A DNA stretch of 64,000 bases from positions 595 to 64,594 of the forward strand of contig JACOYI010000005.1 of the NCBI GenBank assembly GCA_016181935.1. Direction: 5' to 3'. The notes beneath the pieces are model-generated. The model did not search any database. It saw only the letters and a list, made by a program, of their open reading frames with translations, and was not told the origin of the DNA. A program made the position numbers and the translations under genes. The stretch comes from Candidatus Niyogibacteria bacterium (GTDB lineage Bacteria > Patescibacteriota > Minisyncoccia > HO2-45-28). This document shows positions 3,230-61,399 of the stretch, piece after piece. The stretch's first letter is position 1. Each line of letters opens with the position of its first letter.

Positions 3230-4098
3230 ACGAAACACTCAATGACTGGCTGCGTCAGGCGGCAGAGGAGCGCTGGGCCGTCCCGCACTTCAACATTTCG
3301 AATTTCGTCCAATTAAAGGGAGTTCTCGCGGCGTGCATGGAGGCGCATACGCCCGTCATGATCGGCACATCCGAAGGCGAAGCGGATTTTATCGGGTTTC
3401 GCATGGCGCGCCACTGGATCGACGCCGCCGAAGAGGAGACCGGTCTCGCGGTTTTTTTGAACGCCGATCATTTTCATAGTTTTGAGAAGGTCGCGGCCGC
3501 GCTGGATGCGGGATACGATTCGGCGCTTATTGATCTGTCCAAAAAACGCGTCGAAGATAATAGCGCCGAGACGCGCCGCGTCGTGGATCATGCCCATGCG
3601 AAAGATCGTGCGATCAGCATCGAGGGGGAGTTGGGATATTTGGTGACAGAATCATCGAAGATCTACAAAGAAGCGGTCGAGATCCCGCCCGAGAGTTTGA
3701 CGGATCCCGATGCGGCGCGCGCATTCGTGGAGACGACAGGAGTGGACCGGTTCGCGCCGGCCGTCGGGAATCTTCACGGTATTGCCGCAAATATGCCGCA
3801 ATTGGATTTTGAGCGGATCGCCGCCATACGCGCGGCGGTGCCGGCGAATGTCGCATTGGTTTTGCATGGCGGGTCCGGCATTCCGGATGACCAGATGCGC
3901 CGCGCGATCGAACTGGGATTCAATAATATTCATGTTTCGACCGAAATTCGCGTGGCGTATACGGACGCATTGCGCGCGGCGCTTGCGGCTATGCCCGACG
4001 AAACGACACCGTATAAATTTTACAAACCGGTCGTTGAAGCGGTTCGCATAAAAGCCATGGAAAAACTCCAATTATTCGGGAGTATTAATCGGATATAA
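3226..4098 (+). CDS. fba: Class II fructose/tagatose-1,6-bisphosphate aldolase
   Basis: 290 aa. PHFNISN..., LNADH..., HGGSG motifs typical of class II (zinc) FBP/TBP aldolases. Confidence 0.85.
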   Translation: MNETLNDWLRQAAEERWAVPHFNISNFVQLKGVLAACMEAHTPVMIGTSEGEADFIGFRMARHWIDAAEEETGLAVFLNADHFHSFEKVAAALDAGYDSALIDLSKKRVEDNSAETRRVVDHAHAKDRAISIEGELGYLVTESSKIYKEAVEIPPESLTDPDAARAFVETTGVDRFAPAVGNLHGIAANMPQLDFERIAAIRAAVPANVALVLHGGSGIPDDQMRRAIELGFNNIHVSTEIRVAYTDALRAALAAMPDETTPYKFYKPVVEAVRIKAMEKLQLFGSINRI

Positions 4099-4258
4099 TT
4101 TCATGAATTCAGGAAATCATTTTCTGGAATACGCTTGAATTTCCAGCGAAATTCAAGCTCCATCCTCGGCGCTTTGTTTTTTGATTCAGCAGAAAGTGTA
4201 ATCAAAAAACACCCTGCAAAGCGCCTGTGGGGCTTCCAAAAATAATTTCCTGAATTTA
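4099..4258 (+). repeat. Structured palindromic intergenic element, family A, copy 1 (about 160 bp, MITE/structured-RNA-like)
   Basis: Terminal inverted repeats TGAATTCAGGAAATCATTTT / AAAATAATTTCCTGAATT. Internal hairpins GCTTGAATTT..AAATTCAAGC and GGCGCTTTG...CAAAGCGCC. Second copy at 52936-53097 with compensatory substitutions. Confidence 0.6.
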
Positions 4259-4270
4259 TTTTATAAAACT

Positions 4271-6420: not shown

Positions 6421-6439
6421 GCGTGATATACTGCCCCAT

Positions 6440-7756
6440 ATGCGTATTTTACCGATCATCGGTGTCGGTTTCGCAATGGGCTTTTTTATTTTTGCCGTTT
6501 TTGTCGCGCGGGCGCAAACCGTGGATCCGGCGCTGGTGGGCGAGCGCAAAGCCGCGCTCGAAAAAGAGCTTGCGGGATACGAAGTTCAGATCGACGCATT
6601 CCGGCAGCAGATCGACGCCAAACGATTGGAGGCCGCAAGTTTTGAGCGCGACATTGCGATCTTGAACGCCGAGATCAAGAAAGCGCAGCTTGCCATCAAG
6701 GCGCGGACCATCGCGATCGAGCAATTATCGGACACGATCGGGGAAAAATCCGATTTCGTGGACGAATTGCTCGTAAAGATCGATCGCGAAAAAAAATCGC
6801 TCGCGGAACTCCTGCGCCGCGTGGAAGAATTGGACCGCACATCATTTGCGGAAGCGTTTTTTTCGCGCGAATCCATCGCCGGATTTTTTAAGGAATTGGA
6901 TCATTATGACACGGTGCAGGCGGCGGTTCACACGTCATTTTTGGAGATCCGGAAAACCCGAGTAGCGACCGAGGAGGAGATCGATACGCTCGAAACCCGC
7001 AAATCGGAAGAGATCGAGCTTCGCGCGCTTCAAACACTCGAAAAAAAACGCGTTGAAGAAAAGGAATCCGAGAAAAAAAAGATCCTCGCGGTCACTAAAG
7101 GCGTTGAAGCCGAATATCAAAAATTGCTGAAGTCGCGCGAAAAAGATGCGGCGCTTATTCGAAGCCAGCTCTTTTTATTGCGCGGTTCGCCGGATATTCC
7201 GTTCGAAAAGGCGGTGGAGTATGCGAATGCCGCATTCAAAGCCACGGGGGTGCGCCCCGCGTTTTTACTCGGTGTGATCGCGGAAGAGTCGAATCTGGGT
7301 GCCAATGTCGGCACGGGGAACTGGAATATCGACATGGCGGATCGCCGGTGCGCATCGCAACGCACGGCATTTCAGGAGATCACCGCTGAACTGGGATTCG
7401 ATCCGAATCTGATGCCGGTTTCCAAAAAGGCGTGGTACGGCTATTGCGGGGGCGCCATGGGGCCCGCGCAATTCATGCCGACCACATGGAAGTTATACAA
7501 AAATTTGATCGCAAAGCATACCGGCCACAACCCGCCCAATCCTTGGGAGGCGCTCGATGCATTCGTGGCGTCGGCGCTTCTGTTGAAAGATAACGGCGCG
7601 GCGGAGGGGACCTATGCAGCTGAGCGCCGCGCGGCGCTCCGGTATTTGGCAGGCGCGAACTGGCAGAAGCGCTCATATGCTTTTTACGGCGACGATGTAA
7701 TGGCGCTTGCCGCCAAGTATCAGGACCAGATGAACATCATTCTGGCGGGGCAGTAG
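6440..7756 (+). CDS. Membrane-anchored coiled-coil protein with C-terminal lytic murein transglycosylase (MltB/Slt-like) domain
   Basis: ATG at 6440; the listed ORF start at 6281 overlaps rplY and is rejected. N-terminal TM, about 250-aa heptad-rich region, then AEESNLG ... [10 protein letters not shown] transglycosylase motifs. Confidence 0.7.
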
Positions 7757-8740: not shown

Positions 8741-8998
8741 GGAGCATAGCGTAGCACGGAGAGGCGGTATTGACAAATGTTTTGGGTAAACACATTTGGC
8801 GGTTTTGAGCGGCTCGCCGTTTGCTTTTTCAAATCGGTCGTTCGTCCTGCCAGCGCAGGACGCCGACCTGCGCTCTCGGCGCGCCAACTCCGCCTTCAGC
8901 GGAGACCGTGCTTGTCGCGCCTGCGAGAGCTTTTCAAAACCAAACGCCTCGCCGCCTTTTCAAAACCGCCAAATGCGCCCGCATATTACCGATGCGCC

Positions 8999-9027
8999 TT
9001 GAATTTAGGGCCGGACTCCTGTAGAAT
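8999..9027 (+). promoter_or_regulatory. Sigma-70-like promoter TTGAAT-17-TAGAAT for rpsB, leaderless geometry
   Basis: -10 box ends 7 nt before the rpsB ATG at 9035. No room for an SD. Confidence 0.55.
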
Positions 9028-9034
9028 GGTCGCT

Positions 9035-9787
9035 ATGTCTGATGTATCAACCATGGAACCCGCAATTCCTTCCGAACCGTCGGCGGCGAGCGCGAGCGAG
9101 ACGGCGGATCCGGAACTCGAAGCGATGTTTTACGCCAAGGTTCATATCGGCTACTCACGGACACGGAGGCACCCGAAAATGAAGCCGTATATTTTCGGGT
9201 TGCGTAATACCGTGGAGATATTCGATTTGGAGCGCGTTCGCGATAAGATCCGCGAAGCCGAAGCGCTCGCGAAGGCATGGGGCGAGAAGCGCGCGGTTGT
9301 GCTTTGGGTCGCCACCAAACCGGCCCTTCGCACGATCATTGAAAAGGCCGCAGGAGATCTTGGTATGCCCTATGTCACGGGCCGGTGGGCCGGCGGATTG
9401 CTTACGAATTTTTCCGAGATCCGCAAACGGCTCGACTATTTCGAGGACCTGAAAGCGAAGCGGGCATCCGGCGAGCTTGCGCGGTATACCAAAAAAGAAC
9501 AACTGGTATTCGCGGATGAACTCATGCGGCTTGAGCAAAAATTCGGCGGTATTGTATCATTAAAGAAACTCCCCGACGCGGTCATCATTGTCGATCCGGA
9601 AGAAGAGATCACGGCCTCCCGAGAAGCGCGGAGTACAGGCGTCCTTTCGGTCGGGATCGCCAATGTGGACTCCAATCCGGAATTAGTAAATCATGTGATC
9701 CCGGCGAACGACAGCGCGGCATCGAGCGTGAGATATATCATCGAGCGCTTGGCCGCGGCTTACCAAGCCGGGACAGGAACGGAATAA
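9035..9787 (+). CDS. rpsB: 30S ribosomal protein S2
   Basis: MSDVS... start sits right after the promoter. Conserved S2 core (VHIGYSRTRRHPKMKPYIFG, VLWVATKP, IVDPEEE). Confidence 0.9.
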   Translation: MSDVSTMEPAIPSEPSAASASETADPELEAMFYAKVHIGYSRTRRHPKMKPYIFGLRNTVEIFDLERVRDKIREAEALAKAWGEKRAVVLWVATKPALRTIIEKAAGDLGMPYVTGRWAGGLLTNFSEIRKRLDYFEDLKAKRASGELARYTKKEQLVFADELMRLEQKFGGIVSLKKLPDAVIIVDPEEEITASREARSTGVLSVGIANVDSNPELVNHVIPANDSAASSVRYIIERLAAAYQAGTGTE

Positions 9788-9794
9788 ATCATCT

Positions 9795-10244
9795 ATGGCG
9801 GATTTTGATATGATTCGTGAGCTCCGGGCTCGGTGCGGCGCATCGATATCGCATTGCAAGAAGGCGCTTGAAGAAACCGGGGGCGATCGGGAAAAGGCGC
9901 TTGAAGTTTTGCGTAAAGAAGGAGCGGATATTGCCGCAAAAAAAGCATCCCGCGCGACGCATGCGGGCGTTGTTGACGCGTATGTGCATGCGGACCGGCG
10001 ATTGGCCGCTCTCGTAAAAGTAAAATGCGAAACGGATTTTGTCGCGCGCAACGACGAATTCCGCGCGTTCGCGCATGACCTTGCGATGCAGGCGGCGGCG
10101 ATGGGGGCGCGAACGTCTGAAGAATTGTTGGAACAGCCGTTCATTAAAGACCCCAAAAAAACCGTACGCGACCTTGTAAAAGAGATCATCGCAAAATTCG
10201 GCGAGAACGTGGAGGTTATTTCCGTGTCGCGCCTTGAGATTTAA
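9795..10244 (+). CDS. tsf: Elongation factor Ts (short form, 149 aa)
   Basis: Directly downstream of rpsB. N-terminal UBA-like ELRARCGASISHCKKALEETGGD and TDFVARN motif. Confidence 0.85.
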   Translation: MADFDMIRELRARCGASISHCKKALEETGGDREKALEVLRKEGADIAAKKASRATHAGVVDAYVHADRRLAALVKVKCETDFVARNDEFRAFAHDLAMQAAAMGARTSEELLEQPFIKDPKKTVRDLVKEIIAKFGENVEVISVSRLEI

Positions 10245-10686: not shown

Positions 10687-10882
10687 GCCGCCTTAGCTCA
10701 ATTGGCAGAGCAACACTTTTGCCCGCCCGCCTAAGACGCGCCGTCCTAGCTCAATTGGCAGAGCAACAGTTTTGTAAACTGTAGGTTCCGGGTTCGACCC
10801 CCGGGGACGGCTCAACAATCGGCGCTAAGGCGCGTCGGGCGCGGTAAAGTGAAGGTTCTCGGTTCGACTCCGAGAGGCGGCT
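10687..10882 (+). tRNA. Interrupted tRNA gene: 5' half about 10687-10722 and 3' half about 10843-10882, separated by an insert containing tRNA-Thr(UGU). Anticodon ambiguous (GGU-Thr or UGC-Ala depending on the junction)
   Basis: Acceptor GCCGCCT pairs 7/7 with AGGCGGC 190 nt away. D-arm, anticodon stem (ACACT/AGTGA) and T-arm (CTCGG-TTCGACT-CCGAG) are all present in the two halves. Confidence 0.5.
10740..10812 (+). tRNA. tRNA-Thr (anticodon UGU)
   Basis: Hand-folded cloverleaf: acceptor GCCGTCC/GGACGGC, D-stem GCTC/GAGC, anticodon stem ACAGT/ACTGT, loop TTTGTAA, T-arm CCGGG-TTCGACC-CCCGG. Confidence 0.85.
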
Positions 10883-18866: not shown

Positions 18867-19062
18867 TGGCGCGCTTTTGCATGCTTCTTTCTCGACACGC
18901 TCGTTCCGCCCTGCGAGCGGAACTCCCTCTATCCTCGGCTCGCTCGTTTCGCGTATGGCGCTGCGCGCAATTATACGCGAAACACCGTGCTCACTCGCCT
19001 GCGGACGGTCTCGAAAAAAGCATGCATCAGCGCTTCAATCTAATCTTTTAACACCTTTAATC

Positions 19063-19287
19063 ATGTTCAACCAAGTCAAAGAAATCCTCGAGCGCGATAT
19101 CCGGCCGCTGTTGGCGATGCATGCGGGCGATGCGGAATTGATCGCGGTCGAGGACGGCGTTGTGAAATTGCGCTTGAAGGGGACATGCCACGGGTGTATG
19201 CTCTCCGAAGTCACGCTGAAAGCCGGTGTCGAGCAATTGCTGAAATCCAAGCTTGACGGTATCAAAAGCGTGGAAGCGGTGGAATGA
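19063..19287 (+). CDS. nfu: NifU-like C-terminal domain protein (Nfu-type Fe-S carrier)
   Basis: ATG at 19063. 74 aa with the CHGCMLS CxxC motif. The upstream part of the listed ORF is rejected as a low-complexity GC frame. Confidence 0.75.
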   Translation: MFNQVKEILERDIRPLLAMHAGDAELIAVEDGVVKLRLKGTCHGCMLSEVTLKAGVEQLLKSKLDGIKSVEAVE

Positions 19288-19322
19288 ATAGAACTCATTC
19301 CAAAACCATTGGCAGGAATGAG

Positions 19323-19416
19323 CGCATGTCGCGAGTAGGATTCTCGGAGCGCGACGGCGCGAGAGTAAGCCGATTCTTCAGCAGAAGAATACGGCGTGCC
19401 TACTCGCGGCATGCGC
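19323..19416 (+). promoter_or_regulatory. 94-nt imperfect palindrome / compound hairpin in the nfu-iscS spacer (candidate leader structure or operator)
   Basis: GCGCATGTCGCGAGTAGG ... CCTACTCGCGGCATGCGC (17 of 18 bp) enclosing an inner hairpin ATTCTTCAGCAGAAGAAT. Ends 16 nt before the iscS ATG. Confidence 0.4.
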
Positions 19417-19431
19417 GAGAGGGGTTTTGAA

Positions 19432-20667
19432 ATGAGTTCTAAAAAATTGATTTATCTGGATCACGCGGCGACCACCCCGGCGGACCCCGAGGTGGTTTTG
19501 GCGATGGAGCCGTATTGGCGCGATGTCGCTGCGAATCCGTCGTCCCTGCACCGGTGCGGACAGGCGGCCATCAAAGCCGTGGACGAAGCGCGGGAGGCCA
19601 TCGCAACATTCATGGGCGCCGCACACCCGCGCGAAATCATTTTTACGGGTTCGGCGACCGAAGCGAATAATCTTGCGATTCGCGGCATTGTCAAAAACTC
19701 GGTTTTTGACAAACCACATGTCGTTACGACCGCGATCGAACACGCGTCGGTTTTGGAAACGGTTCGTGCGCTTGCCCGCCAAAATTTTGCTTCGCAAAAC
19801 TTAGGCGGGCGAGAACAAACGGGCACGATCGAAGCGACGATCCTGCCGGTCGGTAGCGATGGCCGCGTATCGCCGGATGCGGTTCGAGCGGCCGTAAAAG
19901 AAAATACGGCGCTTGTCAGCATCGGCTATGCGAACAACGAGATCGGCACGCTCCAGCCGGTCGCCGAAATCGCGAAGGTGATTCGGGAGTTCCGAAAAAC
20001 CCAGTCTCCGCGCCTCCAGCCTCCAGCTTCTAGTCTCCAGCATCCAGTGTTTCATACCGACGCGGTTCAGGCGGCGCCGTGGCTGGATGTGGACGTAAAA
20101 AAACTCGGCGTCGATATGATGACCATTTCCGCGCACAAAATGTACGGCCCGAAGGGCGCGGGCGCGCTGTATGTAAAAGACGGAATACAGCTCGAGCCCG
20201 TTATCTACGGCGGAGGACAGGAATACGGATTGCGTTCCGGAACGGAAAATGTTCCGGCGATCGTTGGATTCGCAAAAGCCGCAGAAATGACGGGGGAATG
20301 GAAAAAAAGCGCGGCGAATATCGGCGTCATCGAAAAATTTCGCGACGATGCATGGAAAGAAGTACAGGCGATCGCACCGAATGCGGAATTGAACGGACCT
20401 GTCAAAAACCGTCTGCCGAACAATCTCAATATTTTTATTCCCGATGTCGATCCGGAAATTTTTCTGGTTGCACTTTCGGAAGACGGCATCTGTGTGTCGT
20501 CGGGCTCGGCGTGCGCCGCGCGCGCGCTCGGCGAATCGCATGTCATCACCGCGATCGGCAAGGGGGGTAACGATGGATGCCATTTGCGCATCACGTTTGG
20601 CCGGCAGACGACAGAGGACGATATCCGCGCGCTCGTCGCGGCAATGAAAAAGCGCCTCTCGGTTTGA
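19432..20667 (+). CDS. iscS: Cysteine desulfurase (IscS/NifS type) carrying an in-frame heptamer-repeat insertion
   Basis: MSSKKLIYLDHAATTP start with GAGAGGGG RBS. PLP Lys (SAHKMYGPKG) and catalytic Cys (SSGSACAA). Extra segment QSPRLQPPASSLQHP is encoded by (CTCCAGC)n at 20003-20049. Confidence 0.85.
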   Translation: MSSKKLIYLDHAATTPADPEVVLAMEPYWRDVAANPSSLHRCGQAAIKAVDEAREAIATFMGAAHPREIIFTGSATEANNLAIRGIVKNSVFDKPHVVTTAIEHASVLETVRALARQNFASQNLGGREQTGTIEATILPVGSDGRVSPDAVRAAVKENTALVSIGYANNEIGTLQPVAEIAKVIREFRKTQSPRLQPPASSLQHPVFHTDAVQAAPWLDVDVKKLGVDMMTISAHKMYGPKGAGALYVKDGIQLEPVIYGGGQEYGLRSGTENVPAIVGFAKAAEMTGEWKKSAANIGVIEKFRDDAWKEVQAIAPNAELNGPVKNRLPNNLNIFIPDVDPEIFLVALSEDGICVSSGSACAARALGESHVITAIGKGGNDGCHLRITFGRQTTEDDIRALVAAMKKRLSV

Positions 20668-20673
20668 GAGGCG

Positions 20674-21819
20674 CTACGATGCTTTGGGGTTTTTCCACAG
20701 AAAACGGAGTGTTTCGATATCTTCGCCGGGTTCGGCGCCGATATCGGGTTCCGATTTTATTTGTTCGATCAATTCACGAGTGGCGGAGTCCCGGATCATG
20801 TGTATATGCGTGAAATATGCGTGCTCCGGCGGCGGTTCCTTGCGTTCGATTCGTTCGAGTTTTTCCGGCTCGGATTCGATCGCCGGCGGGGCATCGATGG
20901 GGAACCATCGGGCCTCCCGCGTTTGAAGCGGTCCTTCGGGGGATCGCGCTTGTGTTTTCGGGTTGCCATGATTCATTGCAACGCAGAAAAAAATCGTCCG
21001 AAAATAGGGCCGGCTTTCCTCCTCGTTTTTTCTCATGAGTTCGGCTTTGATCTCATCCGGCGCCGGATCGTGACCGAGATATTCTTTCAATGGTTCGATG
21101 ATCGAGTGCCAACGCGCTAAAACATGAACTGCGGTTTCGCTCTGCTTTGCGAGCAAATCCCGATTGGTCTCGATCTCGTTGGCAGTCGGTTCGCGGCCGA
21201 GCTTTTGTTTCAGTAAATCGGTCGGATCTCGCCTTGCGCGCCAGTCCAGATTGGTCTCGATCTCGTTGGCAGTCGGTTCGCGGCCGAGCTTTTGTTTCAG
21301 CCGACCCGCCGATTTTATGATCCGGCTGATCTCCCGGTCCGGATTCAGGACAATGCCCTCTTTGCATTGCGTAAGGATCCGGATTTTTCTTTTGCTTCCG
21401 GGGATCGGAACGTCTTCGCACCACGCCAGAAATCTGATCCTAACCCTGAATTCTTCGAATGCCTCTCGGATCGCGGTGCATTCGGGCGGTTCGGTCCATT
21501 GATTGCCGGATCGTTCGAACAGTTTTTTATACTGACCGCGGATGGCCGGATCGAGATCCGCAATAAAGGCGGAAACATCAACGGCGCTGAACGATTCGGA
21601 GCGTCCGCCGATGAGCCCCCAACCCTCCGGTTTTCCGGCCGGATACGGCAGATTGTATACGCACGCCACGTTTTCAAAGGAAGAATTCACGATAAAGTCG
21701 ACAACGTGATGGTCTCCTCGTCTCACGGTCTTTTCGAAAAGATCCAGCCGTGCGTCTTCGATCGGGATCATTTCGTCCAATAGAGTGAGGGGGGAGGCCC
21801 CTCTGCTCACATACGGCAT
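20674..21819 (-). CDS. Hypothetical protein (381 aa) with a tandem 17-aa repeat containing a sigma-70 region-3-like LGREPT motif
   Basis: ATG 21819 with GAGGAGGG RBS. Perfect tandem DNA duplication around 21160-21300 encodes LKQKLGREPTANEIETN twice. Confidence 0.6.
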   Translation of the reverse strand: MPYVSRGASPLTLLDEMIPIEDARLDLFEKTVRRGDHHVVDFIVNSSFENVACVYNLPYPAGKPEGWGLIGGRSESFSAVDVSAFIADLDPAIRGQYKKLFERSGNQWTEPPECTAIREAFEEFRVRIRFLAWCEDVPIPGSKRKIRILTQCKEGIVLNPDREISRIIKSAGRLKQKLGREPTANEIETNLDWRARRDPTDLLKQKLGREPTANEIETNRDLLAKQSETAVHVLARWHSIIEPLKEYLGHDPAPDEIKAELMRKNEEESRPYFRTIFFCVAMNHGNPKTQARSPEGPLQTREARWFPIDAPPAIESEPEKLERIERKEPPPEHAYFTHIHMIRDSATRELIEQIKSEPDIGAEPGEDIETLRFLWKNPKAS

Positions 21820-21901
21820 GGGTCGGCCCTCCTCAGCTAGTTGACGAACAATACTCGTTTCGGCTATTATTATATGGATATAGAGATTTAATGTCAAGCC
21901 T

Positions 21902-23143
21902 ATGCGAATGGAAGAACTGACAAAGACCCAGCTGGTGCTTTTGGTGCTTCTCGTGAGCTTTGTGACATCGCTTGTCACGGGGATCGTTTCTGTTACGCTC
22001 GTGAATCAGGCGCCCGCGCAAGTGACGCAGACCATCAACCGCGTTTTCGAAAAAGTGGTTCAGGAAAAAGAAGTGGACCTGTCCAAACTTCAGGCGCTGG
22101 TATCGAACCCGGAGGATCTCGTGACAAAACTCGTGGACGCGACGCTTCCTGCGGTGGTTTCGGTCATTGCGACCAAAGATGTTCCGGTGTTCGAGCGGTA
22201 TTTTGTGAATCCATTCGGAAACGACGATATTTTCGGAGATTTTTTGATCCCGCAGTATCGTCAGAAAGGAACGGAGTCGCGTCAAATTTCATCCGGCACC
22301 GGCTTCTTTGTGTCGGAGGATGGGTTGCTGGTAACAAATAAGCACGTGGTTTCGGATGTGGCCGCCGAGTATTCGGTTGTCATGAATGACGGACGCAAGC
22401 TCGCGGCAAAAGTATTGGCGCGCGATCCGCTCCAGGATATCGCGATCTTGAAAGTTGACGGAACATTTACGTATATCGGGCTTGCGGATTCCGATACGAT
22501 CAAAGTCGGACAGACCGTTGTTGCGATCGGCAATGTGCTCGGAGAATTCCAAAATACGGTTTCTTTGGGCGTTGTTTCCGGTTTGCACCGCTCCATTATG
22601 GCCGGCGGTCCGGAAGGGGTAGAAACATTGTCCGAGGTCATCCAGACGGATGCCGCGATCAATAGGGGTAATTCCGGCGGGCCGCTCCTGAATCTTGCGG
22701 GGCGCGCCATCGGCATCAATACGGCGGTTGCGCAGGGCGCAGAGAATGTCGGCTTTGCGCTGCCTGCGAATTTCATCCGCAAGACGCTCGAAGATGTTCG
22801 TGAATTTGGAACAGTTCGGTACGGCTATGTGGGCGTGCGGTATGTCATTGTCACCCCCGATATTCAAACGGCGCGAAAATTATCGGTGGATCACGGGGCG
22901 CTCATCGAAAAAGGCGCGAATGGCGAGGTTGCGGTGCTCGCGGATTCCCCAGCGGCAAAAGCAGGGCTTCGCGAGGGCGATATCATTTTGTCGTTCGACG
23001 GGCGCGATATCACGAAAGACGATACGCTTGCCGCGATGATCAATAAAAAGCGGATCGGCGATGCCATCGAATTGACAATTCATCGCGATGGCGGCGTCGA
23101 GACGGTGACATTAACGCTCGAGGAACGACCCGCCAATTTGTAA
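21902..23143 (+). CDS. htrA: HtrA/DegP-family serine protease with PDZ domain
   Basis: 413 aa. N-terminal TM anchor. Catalytic triad contexts (TNKHVV; D; GNSGGPL) and a C-terminal PDZ. Confidence 0.85.
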   Translation: MRMEELTKTQLVLLVLLVSFVTSLVTGIVSVTLVNQAPAQVTQTINRVFEKVVQEKEVDLSKLQALVSNPEDLVTKLVDATLPAVVSVIATKDVPVFERYFVNPFGNDDIFGDFLIPQYRQKGTESRQISSGTGFFVSEDGLLVTNKHVVSDVAAEYSVVMNDGRKLAAKVLARDPLQDIAILKVDGTFTYIGLADSDTIKVGQTVVAIGNVLGEFQNTVSLGVVSGLHRSIMAGGPEGVETLSEVIQTDAAINRGNSGGPLLNLAGRAIGINTAVAQGAENVGFALPANFIRKTLEDVREFGTVRYGYVGVRYVIVTPDIQTARKLSVDHGALIEKGANGEVAVLADSPAAKAGLREGDIILSFDGRDITKDDTLAAMINKKRIGDAIELTIHRDGGVETVTLTLEERPANL

Positions 23144-36283: not shown

Positions 36284-36772
36284 ATGCAGAAGCAAAAATT
36301 CCGGCAATTCGAAGTACGGCAAGGTGCATACCAAAAATACACGAACATCACGGAAGACGTGCAAAAGGTCATTGACGAGTGGGATATCGCCAACGGTCAT
36401 GTGCATGTGATGGTCATGCATACGACCTGCACATTGCTCATTCAGGAGGCCGAGTCATGGATGATCAACGCTGATCTGTTCCGAGTGCTTGAAGAACTTG
36501 CTTCGGCAGAAGGGCATTATCGCCATGACGATCTCAGTGTTCGCACGGAAAATCTGGATCCGAACCGGCAGGAGCGCAAAAACGGTTTTGCGCATGTGCG
36601 GGCGATGCTCGTTGGGAAGCCGGAATATACGATTCCGGTGCAGGACGGGAAACTATTTCTGGGCCGATGGCAGCGGATCTTGCTTTTGGATTTTGACACG
36701 CGCGAGCGCATCCAGTCGCGGACCGTCACAGTTTCGATGATTGAAAATCCAAAATTCACAGGAGAGGGGTGA
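36284..36772 (+). CDS. YjbQ/UPF0047-family protein (secondary thiamine-phosphate synthase-like)
   Basis: 162 aa. HVMVMHTTCTLLIQE... pattern of UPF0047. Confidence 0.7.
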   Translation: MQKQKFRQFEVRQGAYQKYTNITEDVQKVIDEWDIANGHVHVMVMHTTCTLLIQEAESWMINADLFRVLEELASAEGHYRHDDLSVRTENLDPNRQERKNGFAHVRAMLVGKPEYTIPVQDGKLFLGRWQRILLLDFDTRERIQSRTVTVSMIENPKFTGEG

Positions 36773-36825
36773 AGTCCGTTTCGGCGGACTTTTTTATTTC
36801 GTCCGATTGTGGCACTATAATTTTG

Positions 36826-37935
36826 ATGAAAAGTCAAGATGTGCCGAAAGTATTCGTCGCCCTGTCGGGTGGCGTGGATAGCTCCGTGGCGGCCGCTCTG
36901 TTGCGAGAGCGGGGATTTGATGTGGTCGGCGCGCATATGAAGTGCTGGATTCCGGGAGCCGAAAACTGGGGGCTGGAAGCTGGAAATTGTGGAGCGGAAC
37001 GTGATGCGGAGGATGCGCGCCGTGTCGCCGAGGCGCTCGATATCCCGTTTTATGTATTCGATTTGGAGAAGGAATACCGCGAGCGCGTGTTTGATTATAT
37101 GCTCCGCGAATATGGAGCGGGCCGTACGCCGAATCCCGATGTGCTTTGCAATAGCGAGATCAAATTCGGCGTTTTTTTGGAGAAAGCGCTCTCGCTTGGC
37201 GCGGACTATATTGCGACGGGGCATTACGCTAGAAAAAAGCTGGAAGCTGGAAGCTGGAAGCTGGAAATTGCAAAAGATTTAAACAAAGATCAATCCTATT
37301 TTCTGTGGCGTCTTACGCAGGATCAGTTAAGCCGTACGATATTTCCCATCGGTGAATATACCAAACCCGAGGTGCGGGAACTTGCGCGAAAATACCATTT
37401 GCCGACCGCGGAAAAAAGGGATTCGCAGGGGCTTTGCTTTGTGGGGCATCTCGATTTTCACGATTATTTGCGAAGCGTATTGCCCAAGAAAACGGGCGAC
37501 GTGGTGACGACCTCCGGCAAAAAAGTGGGGGAGCATGACGGCGCGCATTTTTATACCATTGGCCAGCGGCATGGGCTCGGCATCGGCGGCGGGACGCCGT
37601 ATTATGTGGCGGCAAAAAACCTCGAAGCGAACACGCTGACGGTTGCGGAAGGCATCCATGATCCCGAATTATATGTAAAAGAAATTCATGTTGTGGATGT
37701 GAATTGGCTCTCCGGCACTGCACCTTCCAGCCTCCAGTCCCCAGCCTCCGACCTCCAGTATGACGCTCGCATCCGCTACCGCCAGCCGCTTCAAAGGTGC
37801 CACATCCAATCACTTGGAAACTCGGTTTCCAAGTTGCGGGTTGTGTTTGATGCGCCTCAGCGCGCGGCGACATCCGGCCAGTCCGCGGTGTTTTACAAAG
37901 GCGGCGAACTTTTGGGCGGGGGAATCATCGCTTGA
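36826..37935 (+). CDS. mnmA: tRNA-specific 2-thiouridylase MnmA, with three in-frame heptamer-repeat insertions
   Basis: PP-loop SGGVDSS, catalytic Cys contexts. (AGCTGGA)n / (CYTCCAG)n tracts at 36970-36987, 37238-37268 and 37723-37758 encode extra LEAG../SSLQSPAS.. segments. Confidence 0.85.
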   Translation: MKSQDVPKVFVALSGGVDSSVAAALLRERGFDVVGAHMKCWIPGAENWGLEAGNCGAERDAEDARRVAEALDIPFYVFDLEKEYRERVFDYMLREYGAGRTPNPDVLCNSEIKFGVFLEKALSLGADYIATGHYARKKLEAGSWKLEIAKDLNKDQSYFLWRLTQDQLSRTIFPIGEYTKPEVRELARKYHLPTAEKRDSQGLCFVGHLDFHDYLRSVLPKKTGDVVTTSGKKVGEHDGAHFYTIGQRHGLGIGGGTPYYVAAKNLEANTLTVAEGIHDPELYVKEIHVVDVNWLSGTAPSSLQSPASDLQYDARIRYRQPLQRCHIQSLGNSVSKLRVVFDAPQRAATSGQSAVFYKGGELLGGGIIA

Positions 37936-38631: not shown

Positions 38632-39231
38632 CTAGTAAATATAGGTTGTAATGCTTGCTTCTGCAATTTCTTTCATGTGCTCAAAAAGTTCATTTTCCTG
38701 CCATGCGTTTTCTCTGAAAAACATTGATACGGGAGCGTATCCTTCTTTCTTGTGTATAAAAATACGATTCAATGGATAAAATTCATTCATCGTGATAACT
38801 CGATCTCGAATGGATGAACCCTCTGCAAAATCATCGCCCCATCCGAAGCAAACGAATGGCGTGATTTTTTCATATTGAAGTGTGGCTCGGATACCGATAA
38901 GATTTTTTCCCAATCGTTCAATCGCATTTCCTTGCGATTGCTTTTTTAAGCCCTCGGCGATTCGCTTCTTGTTCGTGCCCTGATGTTTCATCTCAACCGC
39001 AAGTGCGATTCTTCGATAGTTTTCATCGTCTTTTTTTCGTAATACCAAAATGCCGCCGTCCGGTTTTATGTAAGAGTCCTCTTTTGAGAGCGGAGAAAAC
39101 TCCGCCCGCTTGTCATATCCTTTGATAATTCCGATCAGTTCCGACAATTTGATGGATTTTACATATTCGAGATAGTAGCCAAGATTCGCAAGGTTAAAAC
39201 GGGTATTGAGATGCTCAATGACCCTTTTCAT
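38632..39231 (-). CDS. Putative Type II restriction endonuclease (PD-(D/E)xK)
   Basis: IKPDGGILVL...EMKHQG fits PD...ExK. Immediately downstream of, and co-directional with, the methyltransferase. Start taken at the internal ATG (MKRVIEHLN). Confidence 0.5.
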   Translation of the reverse strand: MKRVIEHLNTRFNLANLGYYLEYVKSIKLSELIGIIKGYDKRAEFSPLSKEDSYIKPDGGILVLRKKDDENYRRIALAVEMKHQGTNKKRIAEGLKKQSQGNAIERLGKNLIGIRATLQYEKITPFVCFGWGDDFAEGSSIRDRVITMNEFYPLNRIFIHKKEGYAPVSMFFRENAWQENELFEHMKEIAEASITTYIY

Positions 39232-39274
39232 CACCGCCGAAACCTTTTTGTCATCGCCCTTGGAAAGGACGTTT

Positions 39275-39952
39275 TTAGGCAAATGCTGGCTTTTGTTTCG
39301 GCGCAAGAAGTCGCTGTTGCTCATTATGGATATTTTTTACGAAATAATGGCCGCCCAGTTTTGGGATGTTGAAAATCAATACCTCGCTATGAAAGAGGAT
39401 GTTTTCAAAAACATCTTTTGGAAGCGATACGATGCTCGTAATGGGCGGATATTCTTCGTTGATAAATTTCACCCAGCGTTTGCTGTTTTCCGTCTGATTG
39501 AGGCGGAAGCCGTAAGGCGTGAACATCACGATGGGGACTTCACTGCCAAACAATTTCACTGCCTTTGCGAACCACACTTCGGGGAGCAAAGGACGACCGC
39601 CATAATGCTCTTTGATATACTGCTTTGTTTTCGAGTCAATGTTAAAAGGCGGATTCATAATGACGAGCGATATTTTTTCTTTTATCTCGTCCTTTTGAAT
39701 TTCCAAATAATTTTTAACTTTCGTGTTTGGAAAACCCTGATGTTCAATATCAATGCCCATTACTGCATAGCCGTCTTTTTTCCACGGCTTCAAAAGAGAA
39801 CCTTCTCCCACGCACGGATCAATGACGATTCCATCCGATTTTTTGATGTGCGGATGAATCAGATCGTAAAGAAATTCGCTTACATAATCGGGAGTGAAAA
39901 TCGTTGCTTTTTTCTCGTTTTTATAGAAATTGTTCCGATCTACCCGATACAT
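39275..39952 (-). CDS. N6-adenine DNA methyltransferase (gamma-class, NPPF motif)
   Basis: ATG 39952 (MYRVDRNNF); the listed start 39979 is a TTG. Motif I VIDPCVGEGSLL and motif IV VIMNPPFN. Confidence 0.8.
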   Translation of the reverse strand: MYRVDRNNFYKNEKKATIFTPDYVSEFLYDLIHPHIKKSDGIVIDPCVGEGSLLKPWKKDGYAVMGIDIEHQGFPNTKVKNYLEIQKDEIKEKISLVIMNPPFNIDSKTKQYIKEHYGGRPLLPEVWFAKAVKLFGSEVPIVMFTPYGFRLNQTENSKRWVKFINEEYPPITSIVSLPKDVFENILFHSEVLIFNIPKLGGHYFVKNIHNEQQRLLAPKQKPAFA

Positions 39953-40068
39953 AACTAAATAATGACATAGAAAGGGCAACCTGAATACTCGCCCTCAAAG
40001 GAGATGGGGATAAGTCAAAAAAGATGCTATTGTTGAGATAATGCAACGCAAGGACTTCCAATCCATCA

Positions 40069-40944
40069 TCAAACGGGCATCACAGCCCGTCCGAGAATGG
40101 AAGAAAACATCGGGCGCGAAACCAGACGCTGATTCCAGCGATACACGAATTCGTCCACATAACGCTGGAGATACTTCGGGGATACGGCATGGTGCGTCCC
40201 GTCCAGCGACCGCTTGAGTTGCGACCAAAAGCCCTCGATGGTGTTTGTATGTATTTTGCCACGCACATACTCCTTGATGCCGTGTTGGATGGTCTCGTGG
40301 CTGTATCCGTTTGAGCCGACCCGATTGTAGGATTTGAACTCGTCTGTAAAGATTATGCTTTGTTTGCGGACGGATTGCTGGATGATGGGCATGATGGTTT
40401 TACTTTTTACATTCTCAACAACTCGCGCTTTCACATTTCCTTTGCGGGATGCGATACCGAATACGGGCGTTTTGTGTTCTGCCCCGCGTCCGCGCTTGTT
40501 GTGCTTGCCCTTACCGCCGACATAGGTTTCATCCGCTTCCACCTCGCCGTAAAATTTGATGTTATTCTGCTCAAAGAGAAGCCGGATTTGCTGACCCATC
40601 CGCCACGCGCATTTATAGGTCATGCCGAGTTGCCGTTCCAATTCTTTCGCCGCGACACCATTCCGGCTTGAAGCGAACAAGAAGATAGCCCAGAACCAAT
40701 CTTTTAAGGATGTGTCCGATTTGTGGAAGATTGTGCCCGCGAGCGGATGGACGCTAAATCCGCATTGGCAATCGTATCGCTTGCGTCCGGCAATCCGGTG
40801 GAACTTTCCGCGCTTCTTGCACGATGGACAGGCATACCGCTTGCCATAGCGATTCAAAAAGATAGAATGAAGGCAGGCCTCATTGGTCGGGTAATCCCTT
40901 TCGAAATCCTTGCGCGTGTATTTTTTCATACCCCATCCTATCAA
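40069..40944 (-). CDS. IS1595-family (ISXO2-like) DDE transposase
   Basis: 291 aa. N-terminal zinc ribbon (CPSCKK..C), then a DDE core with DETYVGG, TDEFKSY and a C-terminal ISXO2-type region (VNRF). Confidence 0.85.
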   Translation of the reverse strand: MIGWGMKKYTRKDFERDYPTNEACLHSIFLNRYGKRYACPSCKKRGKFHRIAGRKRYDCQCGFSVHPLAGTIFHKSDTSLKDWFWAIFLFASSRNGVAAKELERQLGMTYKCAWRMGQQIRLLFEQNNIKFYGEVEADETYVGGKGKHNKRGRGAEHKTPVFGIASRKGNVKARVVENVKSKTIMPIIQQSVRKQSIIFTDEFKSYNRVGSNGYSHETIQHGIKEYVRGKIHTNTIEGFWSQLKRSLDGTHHAVSPKYLQRYVDEFVYRWNQRLVSRPMFSSILGRAVMPV

Positions 40945-52935: not shown

Positions 52936-53097
52936 ATTCATGAATTACGAAATCCATTTTAGAGTACGCTTGAACGCCCAGCGGCATTCAAGCTCCGTCC
53001 TCGGCGCTTTGCTTTTTGGCTCGCTTCGCGAAATTTTAGCCAAAAAGCACCATGCAAAGCGCCTGCGGGGCCTCTAAATGGACTTCGTAATTCATTC
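52936..53097 (+). repeat. Structured palindromic intergenic element, family A, copy 2
   Basis: Same architecture as 4099-4258: TIRs TGAATTACGAAATCCATTTT / AAATGGACTTCGTAATTCA, conserved GGCGCTTTG...CAAAGCGCC stem, inner hairpins with compensatory changes. Occupies the grpE-dnaK spacer. Confidence 0.6.
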
Positions 53098-53115
53098 ATT
53101 AACTAACGAAATATT

Positions 53116-61359: not shown

Positions 61360-61399
61360 GTACTATAAAACTTTGACGGCCGTCAAAGTTTTATAGTAC
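61360..61399. repeat. Perfect 40-bp AT-rich palindrome (GTACTATAAAACTTTGACGG|CCGTCAAAGTTTTATAGTAC)
   Basis: 20+20 bp perfect inverted repeat, preceded by a T7 run. Lies between the 60931 ORF and the fabH-like gene. Confidence 0.55.

Follow-up and report, generated by a model that had tools for sequence, protein, structure and literature searches.

A 64-kb stretch of DNA from a MAG of Candidatus Niyogibacteria (Patescibacteria/CPR), which we refer to as the window, contains four copies of a structured intergenic repeat, family A. This family is non-coding, its members are 155–170 bp long, and ten copies have been found in three genomes. The family has several copies per genome, its presence at orthologous sites varies between relatives, it comprises several deeply diverged subfamilies, and its fold has been kept by compensatory changes. 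From this sample of ten copies and three genomes, we think it probable, with room for doubt, that family A is a new group of mobile repeats in Candidatus Niyogibacteria that are non-autonomous and depend on their structure. Most likely, it is a selfish mobile repeat that requires its fold in order to spread, rather than a gene regulator.

The original prediction described two structured intergenic copies of about 160 bp. Both were found where it had placed them, with 83% identity over their alignment and folding energies far below those of shuffled sequences. Its count of two was too low, since the window also holds two strongly diverged copies (Table 1). These were found by a search with a covariance model. 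The model, which was built from five family A copies, gave 156 bits for copy 1 (E 3e-33), 180 bits for copy 2, 36.8 bits for copy 3, which was not among the copies used to build it, and 30.6 bits for copy 4. Logan short-read contigs from the source samples break within copy 1 on both sides, which is expected for a repeat or a long palindrome.

Table 1. Positions of the family A copies in the window, of the helices of the two canonical copies, and of the family B copies.
Feature	Sequence	Position	Strand	Remarks
Family A copy 1, canonical	window	4100–4262	+	fba stop (4098) to 2-hydroxyacid dehydrogenase ATG (4271); flanking genes by Pfam
Copy 1, closing stem P1	window	4103–4132 with 4231–4259	+	
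Copy 1, hairpin 1	window	4133–4158	+	loop CAGC 4144–4147
Copy 1, short helix P3	window	4160–4163 with 4227–4230	+	
Copy 1, long arm P4–P5	window	4168–4225	+	conserved 3′ bulge ACCCTGC 4211–4217
Family A copy 2, canonical	window	52936–53099	+	grpE stop (52935) to dnaK ATG (53116)
Copy 2, closing stem P1	window	52940–52964 with 53072–53095	+	
Copy 2, hairpin 1	window	52968–52993	+	
Copy 2, long arm	window	52997–53071	+	bulge ACCATGC 53049–53055
Family A copy 3, diverged subfamily	window	18867–19037	+	GC 0.59; immediately 3′ of the Fe/Mn superoxide dismutase stop (18866)
Family A copy 4, diverged subfamily	window	8805–8959	+	GC 0.63; outer palindrome reaches 8793–8975
Family B	window	19289–19443	-	
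Family B	L008	1483–1632	+	
Family B	L014	6671–6823	+	

All the copies have a common fold in which a closing stem of about 25 bp leads to a three-way junction bearing a short hairpin and a long bulged arm. The long closing stem and the two inner hairpins that had been predicted were found in the folds of both canonical copies. The GGCGCTTTG...CAAAGCGCC stem is as described, as is the change in hairpin 2 from TTTTTTGATT/AATCAAAAAA to CTTTTTGGCT/AGCCAAAAAG. The change in hairpin 1 needs correction: TTT/AAA was said to become CGC/GCG, and two pairs are indeed compensated, but the actual sequence is CGC/GCA, which makes the third pair C.A. Relative to dinucleotide shuffles, the folding energies of copies 1 and 2 have z values of -8.1 and -9.3 on the + strand and of -6.9 and -9.3 on the - strand, with none of 200 shuffles equally stable; folded as single-stranded DNA, copy 2 has a z of -9 on each strand. 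The folding z values of copies 3 and 4 are -5.9 and -4.0, respectively.

The diverged copies have wholly different stem sequences and a higher G+C content, with the architecture retained. Several unpaired motifs have been kept across the subfamilies: hairpin 1 is preceded by ACG and has the 6-nt loop C-CNGC-G, the junction has CTC and TCYTC, and the 3′ side has the invariant 7-nt bulge ACCNYGC. Copy 3, for example, combines the common architecture with the motif ACG, the loop CCTGCGA, TCCTCGGC, the bulge ACCGTGC, and CGCCTGCGG, while copy 4 carries the loop CCAGCG on an entirely different hairpin 1 stem (GTCCTG/CAGGAC) along with the bulge ACCGTGC. The most conserved part of family A is its core, and the least conserved part is its ends (TGAATT / GCGAATC / GGGAATC / GTGGGTT / GGCGCGC / CATTTGGCGG).

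The selection on secondary structure that the original prediction proposed is borne out by covariation. RNAalifold, run on a MAFFT alignment of five copies, gave 59 pairs, 22 of which had changed on both sides in a compensatory manner. When all ten copies were aligned to the model, both-side changes occurred in 46 of the 59 pairs, compared with 20 at most in slid controls, and none of 500 shuffles reached this level; paired cells made up 91.1% of the total, compared with 70% after shuffling and 49% at most when the partners were slid. These covariation figures are somewhat inflated by the fitting of the ten-copy alignment to the model. Nevertheless, the effect size and the independent MAFFT result make the structure secure, and sequence comparison supports selection preserving it; chance or artefact is excluded as the cause of family A. 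A small ORF running through the element was ruled out because the stems of the diverged copies are completely changed. A pseudoknot between the hairpin 1 loop and the bulge was likewise rejected, since the two have no complementarity and their variable positions do not covary.

Outside the window, one genome per species was scanned for an exact pattern. This yielded four copies in the MAG JACOVJ01, also from Niyogibacteria (L002, L008, L012, and L014), plus a fifth match, L009, that a later screen showed to be genuine. A second covariance model then revealed a diverged copy in L009 beside the canonical one and in the opposite orientation, so that both copies of the MAG CAZNNT01 are in L009. 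This contig (CAZNNT010000012.1) is titled ‘Candidatus Saccharibacteria’. However, its uracil-DNA glycosylase (UDG) shares 96% identity with the one encoded in the complete Niyogibacteria genome CP066691, and the surrounding gene order is identical. The Saccharibacteria label is therefore probably wrong, it can be dismissed as a sign of inter-phylum transfer, and family A is so far known from Niyogibacteria only. No family A copies were found in about 140 kb of other Niyogibacteria DNA. A scan of metagenome contigs with the core pattern gave five matches, all due to chance and located in GC-rich coding DNA; in viral contigs, a strict pattern gave no matches and a loose pattern gave 120, again all due to chance, and blastn against plasmids and phages gave no family A match. 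At the gathering threshold of Rfam 15, the window yields only tRNAs. At E values of up to 10, copy 1 has only chance-level matches, the best being the snoRNA sR4 (19 bits against a cut-off of 50), and at E values of up to 1 nothing was found for copies 3 and 4 or for family B (see below). Nothing relevant was found in the literature on CPR repeats or structured RNAs.

Every orthologous site that could be examined in relatives is empty. The grpE-dnaK spacer, which contains copy 2 in the window, is 14 and 23 nt long in relatives with a DnaK that is 86% identical, and 56 and 21 nt long in more distant relatives; with such short spacers in all four, copy 2 is an insertion. The rpmE-rpsB spacer, which contains copy 4, is 81 nt long in L154 (from JACOVJ01 itself), 69 nt in L155, and about 100 nt in L156/157, and the sod-nifU spacer, which contains copy 3, is 55 nt long in the relative L156. 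Similarly, the infC-rpmI spacer that carries the L008 copy is 1 nt long in CP066691, which also lacks both L009 copies between polX and UDG. The short spacers in relatives rule out the idea that copies 3 and 4 are ancient, positionally conserved regulators. The diverged copies, too, are insertions specific to their lineage; several subfamilies have therefore been mobile, each keeping the fold, which is what one expects if propagation needs the fold.

A different insertion exists in the polX-UDG spacer of CP066691 (L158, about 9702–9955). It is an unrelated, structured sequence of 254 nt with a GGATAA direct repeat at its bounds, it is missing from the near-identical L009 spacer, and it opens with a hairpin that has a 27-bp stem (AACCCTCACACCCACTTTTCAA...). 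A similar hairpin (GACCCCCACACC...) is located at 3420–3500 of CP066691, and the two look like a further family of structured insertions in Niyogibacteria.

An important question is whether family A acts on the genes around it. The neighbours are unrelated to one another: fba/2-hydroxyacid dehydrogenase, grpE/dnaK, sod/nifU, rpmE/rpsB, CIRCE/groES, infC/rpmI, an unknown gene/pilB, and polX/UDG. The original prediction had both copies in the same orientation directly after a stop codon, and this is so for window copies 1 to 3 (the end of copy 3 is 26 nt from a NifU-like ORF with its ATG at 19063) but is not a rule of the family. Copy 4 is in the divergent spacer between rpmE/prfB on the - strand and rpsB (ATG 9035), upstream of a promoter-like sequence, TTGAAT-17-TAGAAT, that ends 7 nt before the rpsB ATG and that is conserved in the relative L154; copy 4 is thus predicted to be outside the rpsB transcript. 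The L014 copy, which occupies its entire spacer, runs antisense to the genes on either side, and in L009 a divergent spacer carries two copies that face each other. Where independent copies are sited between co-directional genes, five of six are in the sense orientation, and the same strand is on the G-rich side in eight of the ten copies. Family A lacks the pattern of a cis-regulatory leader, which would be in the 5′ UTR of genes with related functions and always in the sense orientation, and neither a sigma-70-type promoter nor an intrinsic terminator consensus was found in or beside copies 1 and 2.

In a structured functional RNA, G.U pairs would be tolerated on the transcribed strand only. 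Over the 59 pairs, in a small set of copies that are partly dependent on one another, G.U and A.C cells number 21 each, so there is no sense-strand G.U excess. In the same limited set of partly dependent copies, the count outside P3 is 4 G.U against 15 A.C; these mismatches are therefore of the kind tolerated by the opposite strand. P3 itself carries two almost invariant U.G pairs and is the only place with sense-strand U.G. In seven of nine copies, the complement folds better than the sense strand.

The main alternative is a host-serving, cis-acting RNA module, that is, an RNase III-type processing site, an mRNA stabiliser, or a translation-start insulator that has spread because it is useful. 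RNase III cuts duplexes of the kind formed by a perfect stem of about 25 bp, like the closing stem here. Moreover, six sense copies are within or ahead of highly expressed operons (grpE-dnaK, CIRCE-groES, infC-rpmI, sod-nifU, and fba-2HADH), the L002 element is part of the groES transcript, since the CIRCE operator is upstream of it, and the unpaired motifs are invariant across the subfamilies. There is also the comparison of the orthologous groES loci L002 and L012 in JACOVJ01, where the core has a single difference in 116 positions, while the closing-stem arm, the spacer, and the first 60 nt of groES together have 11 differences in 102 positions. This much better conservation of the core suggests either selection in place or homogenisation by gene conversion. 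However, such a module would not be expected upstream of the rpsB promoter (copy 4), antisense to both its neighbours (L014), or as two copies facing each other in a divergent spacer (L009), and the equal mismatch counts, the usually more stable complement, the lack of promoter and terminator consensus, and the absence of the element from every site examined in close relatives also count against it. We consider this alternative unlikely, though worth keeping in mind. The original prediction had set a structured non-coding RNA or attenuator beside a MITE-like repeat: the unrelated neighbours, copy 4, the antisense L014 copy, and the missing sense-strand G.U excess all weaken the attenuator, and the MITE-like option gains from the empty sites. 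The points in favour of a functional RNA are compatible with mobility, since a mobile element can also act on host transcripts.

There are two other possibilities. One, which we rate as distinctly improbable, is that the copies are mobile small non-coding RNA genes or a putative self-processing (ribozyme-like) RNA, in which the junction, loop, and bulge would form the active or protein-binding core and the closing stem would merely have to be paired. A closing stem that covaries freely around a conserved core is characteristic of functional RNA folds such as small ribozymes and aptamers, and family A has a three-way junction with a 6-nt loop and a 7-nt bulge that does not vary; it is also multi-copy and patchy, as are several small ribozyme classes. 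Yet no Rfam match appears even at E < 10, the element is without a promoter or terminator of its own, copy 1 starts 5 nt past a stop codon, and the strand test clearly favours neither transcript, with sense U.G confined to P3 and the complement tolerating the other mismatches. The other possibility is a DNA-level host site such as an attC-type recombination site, a protein operator, or a replication-related single-strand signal. This would fit the structure being kept on both strands as single-stranded DNA, a closing stem that conserves structure more than sequence, as in attC, and the several copies directly 3′ of an ORF. Against this, the R″/R′ boxes of integron attC sites (RYYYAAC / GTTRRRY) are missing from the stem base in the copies inspected, the copies are 10–34 kb apart among housekeeping genes with no cassette array, the same sites are without copies in close relatives, and no integrase was seen in the DNA examined; a DNA-level host site is the least probable of the explanations.

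If family A is a selfish mobile repeat, as we prefer to think, a copy may fold as single-stranded DNA, or as RNA when it is co-transcribed, and a trans-acting mobilising enzyme would recognise the fold together with the unpaired motifs. Such recognition would explain why the core is conserved and the ends are variable. A structure-specific single-strand enzyme (HUH/RAYT-like) would be a closer fit to this pattern than a DDE transposase, for which the terminal inverted repeats are the binding sites. The insertions would then persist in the very short intergenic spacers of a compact genome, and an element within an operon would be passively carried in the mRNA, with any effects on the neighbours (processing, stability, or start-codon access) being secondary. 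A more specific proposal, which we put forward only tentatively, is that of a structure-defined mobile module in CPR bacteria whose functional unit would be the conserved three-way-junction core and not the ends; this core could be either the substrate of a putative structure-specific single-strand transposase or recombinase, or an RNA, copied into many transcripts, that would itself be active in self-processing or in recruiting proteins.

No mobilising enzyme for family A was identified in the DNA examined. The sole transposase in the window is an IS1595-family DDE transposase (40069–40944, - strand), which was rejected as the mobiliser because its flanks are unrelated to the ends of the element and are without clear inverted repeats of their own. 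This gene adjoins an EcoRI-like restriction endonuclease (38632–39324, - strand) and an N6 DNA methylase fragment (39275–39979, - strand) in a G+C dip at 36–44 kb, and the region from 38632 to 40944 probably represents a small mobile island. Copy 2 lies between direct repeats of ATTCAT and copy 3 between direct repeats of CTAAT, and copy 1 has TTTCA/TTTTA at best; nothing comparable was seen at copy 4 or at the L008 and L014 copies, and no target-site duplication consistent across family A was found.

Comparisons with known systems go only part of the way. Like a classical MITE, family A is short, non-coding, multi-copy, and present or absent at orthologous sites. A classical MITE, however, has conserved terminal inverted repeats that it shares with an autonomous IS, while the ends of family A are its most variable part. 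The MITE-like option of the original prediction gains from the empty orthologous sites, but a classical MITE would also have a target-site duplication of fixed length and a matching transposase, and neither a consistent duplication nor such an enzyme was found. The Correia/NEMIS elements of Neisseria and the TIR-type MITEs resemble family A in being 100–170 bp long, intergenic, and co-transcribed, with a long stem that is potentially a target of RNase III and with insertion polymorphism; they differ from it in having conserved terminal inverted repeats and a TA duplication, instead of variable ends without a consistent duplication.

The ERIC/IRU elements of Enterobacteria are imperfect palindromes of about 127 bp that are intergenic, co-transcribed, present or absent at orthologous sites, and without a known transposase, and their hairpin is maintained by paired changes. 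Family A is likewise a long intergenic palindrome that is present or absent at orthologous sites and whose hairpin is kept by paired changes. It has no sequence similarity to ERIC, from which it also differs in its branched three-way-junction core, its invariant unpaired motifs, its deeply diverged subfamilies, and its hosts, which are CPR bacteria with genomes of about 0.8 Mb.

The REPIN/RAYT system also offers a likeness in that its short, non-autonomous extragenic repeats form hairpins as single-stranded DNA or RNA, and in that structure and short motifs are recognised rather than terminal inverted repeats. Compensatory changes on both sides are common and documented in selfish REPIN hairpins (PMC3116915). 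In a REPIN, two inverted REP units form a symmetric pair, whereas family A is asymmetric, with a one-sided bulge and with inner hairpins that differ in sequence, length, and shape; because of this asymmetry and of the difference between its two inner hairpins, family A is not a REPIN. Moreover, the GTAG-type REP motif is absent from family A, and no RAYT (Y1/HUH) gene was found among the ORFs scanned (64 kb of this genome and pieces of about 8–20 kb of others). As for the palindrome-associated elements (PATEs) derived from IS200/IS605, mobility as single-stranded DNA, hairpin recognition, and a strand-specific orientation are conceivable for family A too. However, the IS200/IS605 ends are two similar subterminal hairpins with no closing stem, while family A has two unrelated hairpins enclosed by a 25-bp stem; neither tnpA nor tnpB was found, and the IS605-related RNA motifs of Rfam do not match family A. 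By analogy, the lifestyle of family A appears comparable to those of ERIC, REPIN, and Correia elements, and its combination of a conserved core with variable ends appears unusual.

Family A is not the only structured palindromic repeat in these genomes, and the company of other mobile structured repeats, family B and the 254-nt insertion in CP066691, is in keeping with its being mobile. The copies of family B are 77–87% identical between genomes and occupy different loci (Table 1). Family B bears inverted repeats at its termini (GAACTCATTTCAAAA...TTTTGAAATGAGTTC) with a TA on either side (TA/AA in L008), such that its ends read TA, GAACTCAT...ATGAGTTC, TA, and from its sequence it looks like a classical TA-targeting, TIR-bearing MITE. 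Its rplT-ZIP site is empty in CP066691. The inner part of family B (ACGC, a hairpin loop CTGCTGA, and a second small hairpin) obtains about 22 bits with the family A models. An ATG in the terminal repeat (ATGAGTTC, then TA, then AA...), at 19433 in the window and at 6814 in L014, is in frame with the downstream ORFs, which are a NifS-like cysteine desulfurase (MSSKKLIYLD...) in the window and an unrelated ORF (MSSKTKTLVILD...) in L014. This ATG is likely to be the start codon of these ORFs, and the repeat may donate start codons.

Several smaller features of the window were also observed. Perfect 40-bp palindromes at 548–587 and 61360–61399, and another in L154 (9671–9716), have a common centre, GACGGCCGTC, and different arms; a Logan contig starts within the one at 548–587, and these palindromes may serve as bidirectional terminators or form one more small family of repeats. 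At 10687–10721, 53 nt upstream of the intact tRNA-Thr(TGT) gene (10740–10813), a stretch of 35 nt copies the 5′ half of this tRNA (91%) without being called as a tRNA; it may have been left behind by an integration or a duplication there. TATAAT-like boxes end 5–8 nt before several start codons (9000–9037, 950–965, 6425–6440, and 36810–36826), and of 55 crude ORF calls only 18 have an SD-like 4-mer upstream; leaderless or short-leadered mRNAs may be common in this organism. There are also two repeats within ORFs: a 70-nt direct repeat at 21144–21300 (93% identical, 87 nt apart) within the ORF at 20674–21978 (- strand), and a tandem array of the heptamer GCTGGAA at 37223–37273 within a tRNA methyltransferase-like ORF (36769–37935).

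The genomes of CPR/Patescibacteria are tiny and tightly packed, and selfish repeats are therefore expected to be rare in them; the non-coding RNA content of these bacteria is almost unexplored. Family A has 59 base pairs, most of which covary, it is absent from Rfam, it turns over between genomes with proteins that are 96% identical, and it is located inside the core operons hrcA-grpE-dnaK, groES, and infC-rpmI. A purely selfish family A would show that reduced genomes allow structure-dependent mobile DNA to thrive, and it would serve both to follow strain-level dynamics and to account for breaks in assemblies. If, instead, its conserved core has an activity of its own, family A would represent a new functional class of RNA or single-stranded DNA.
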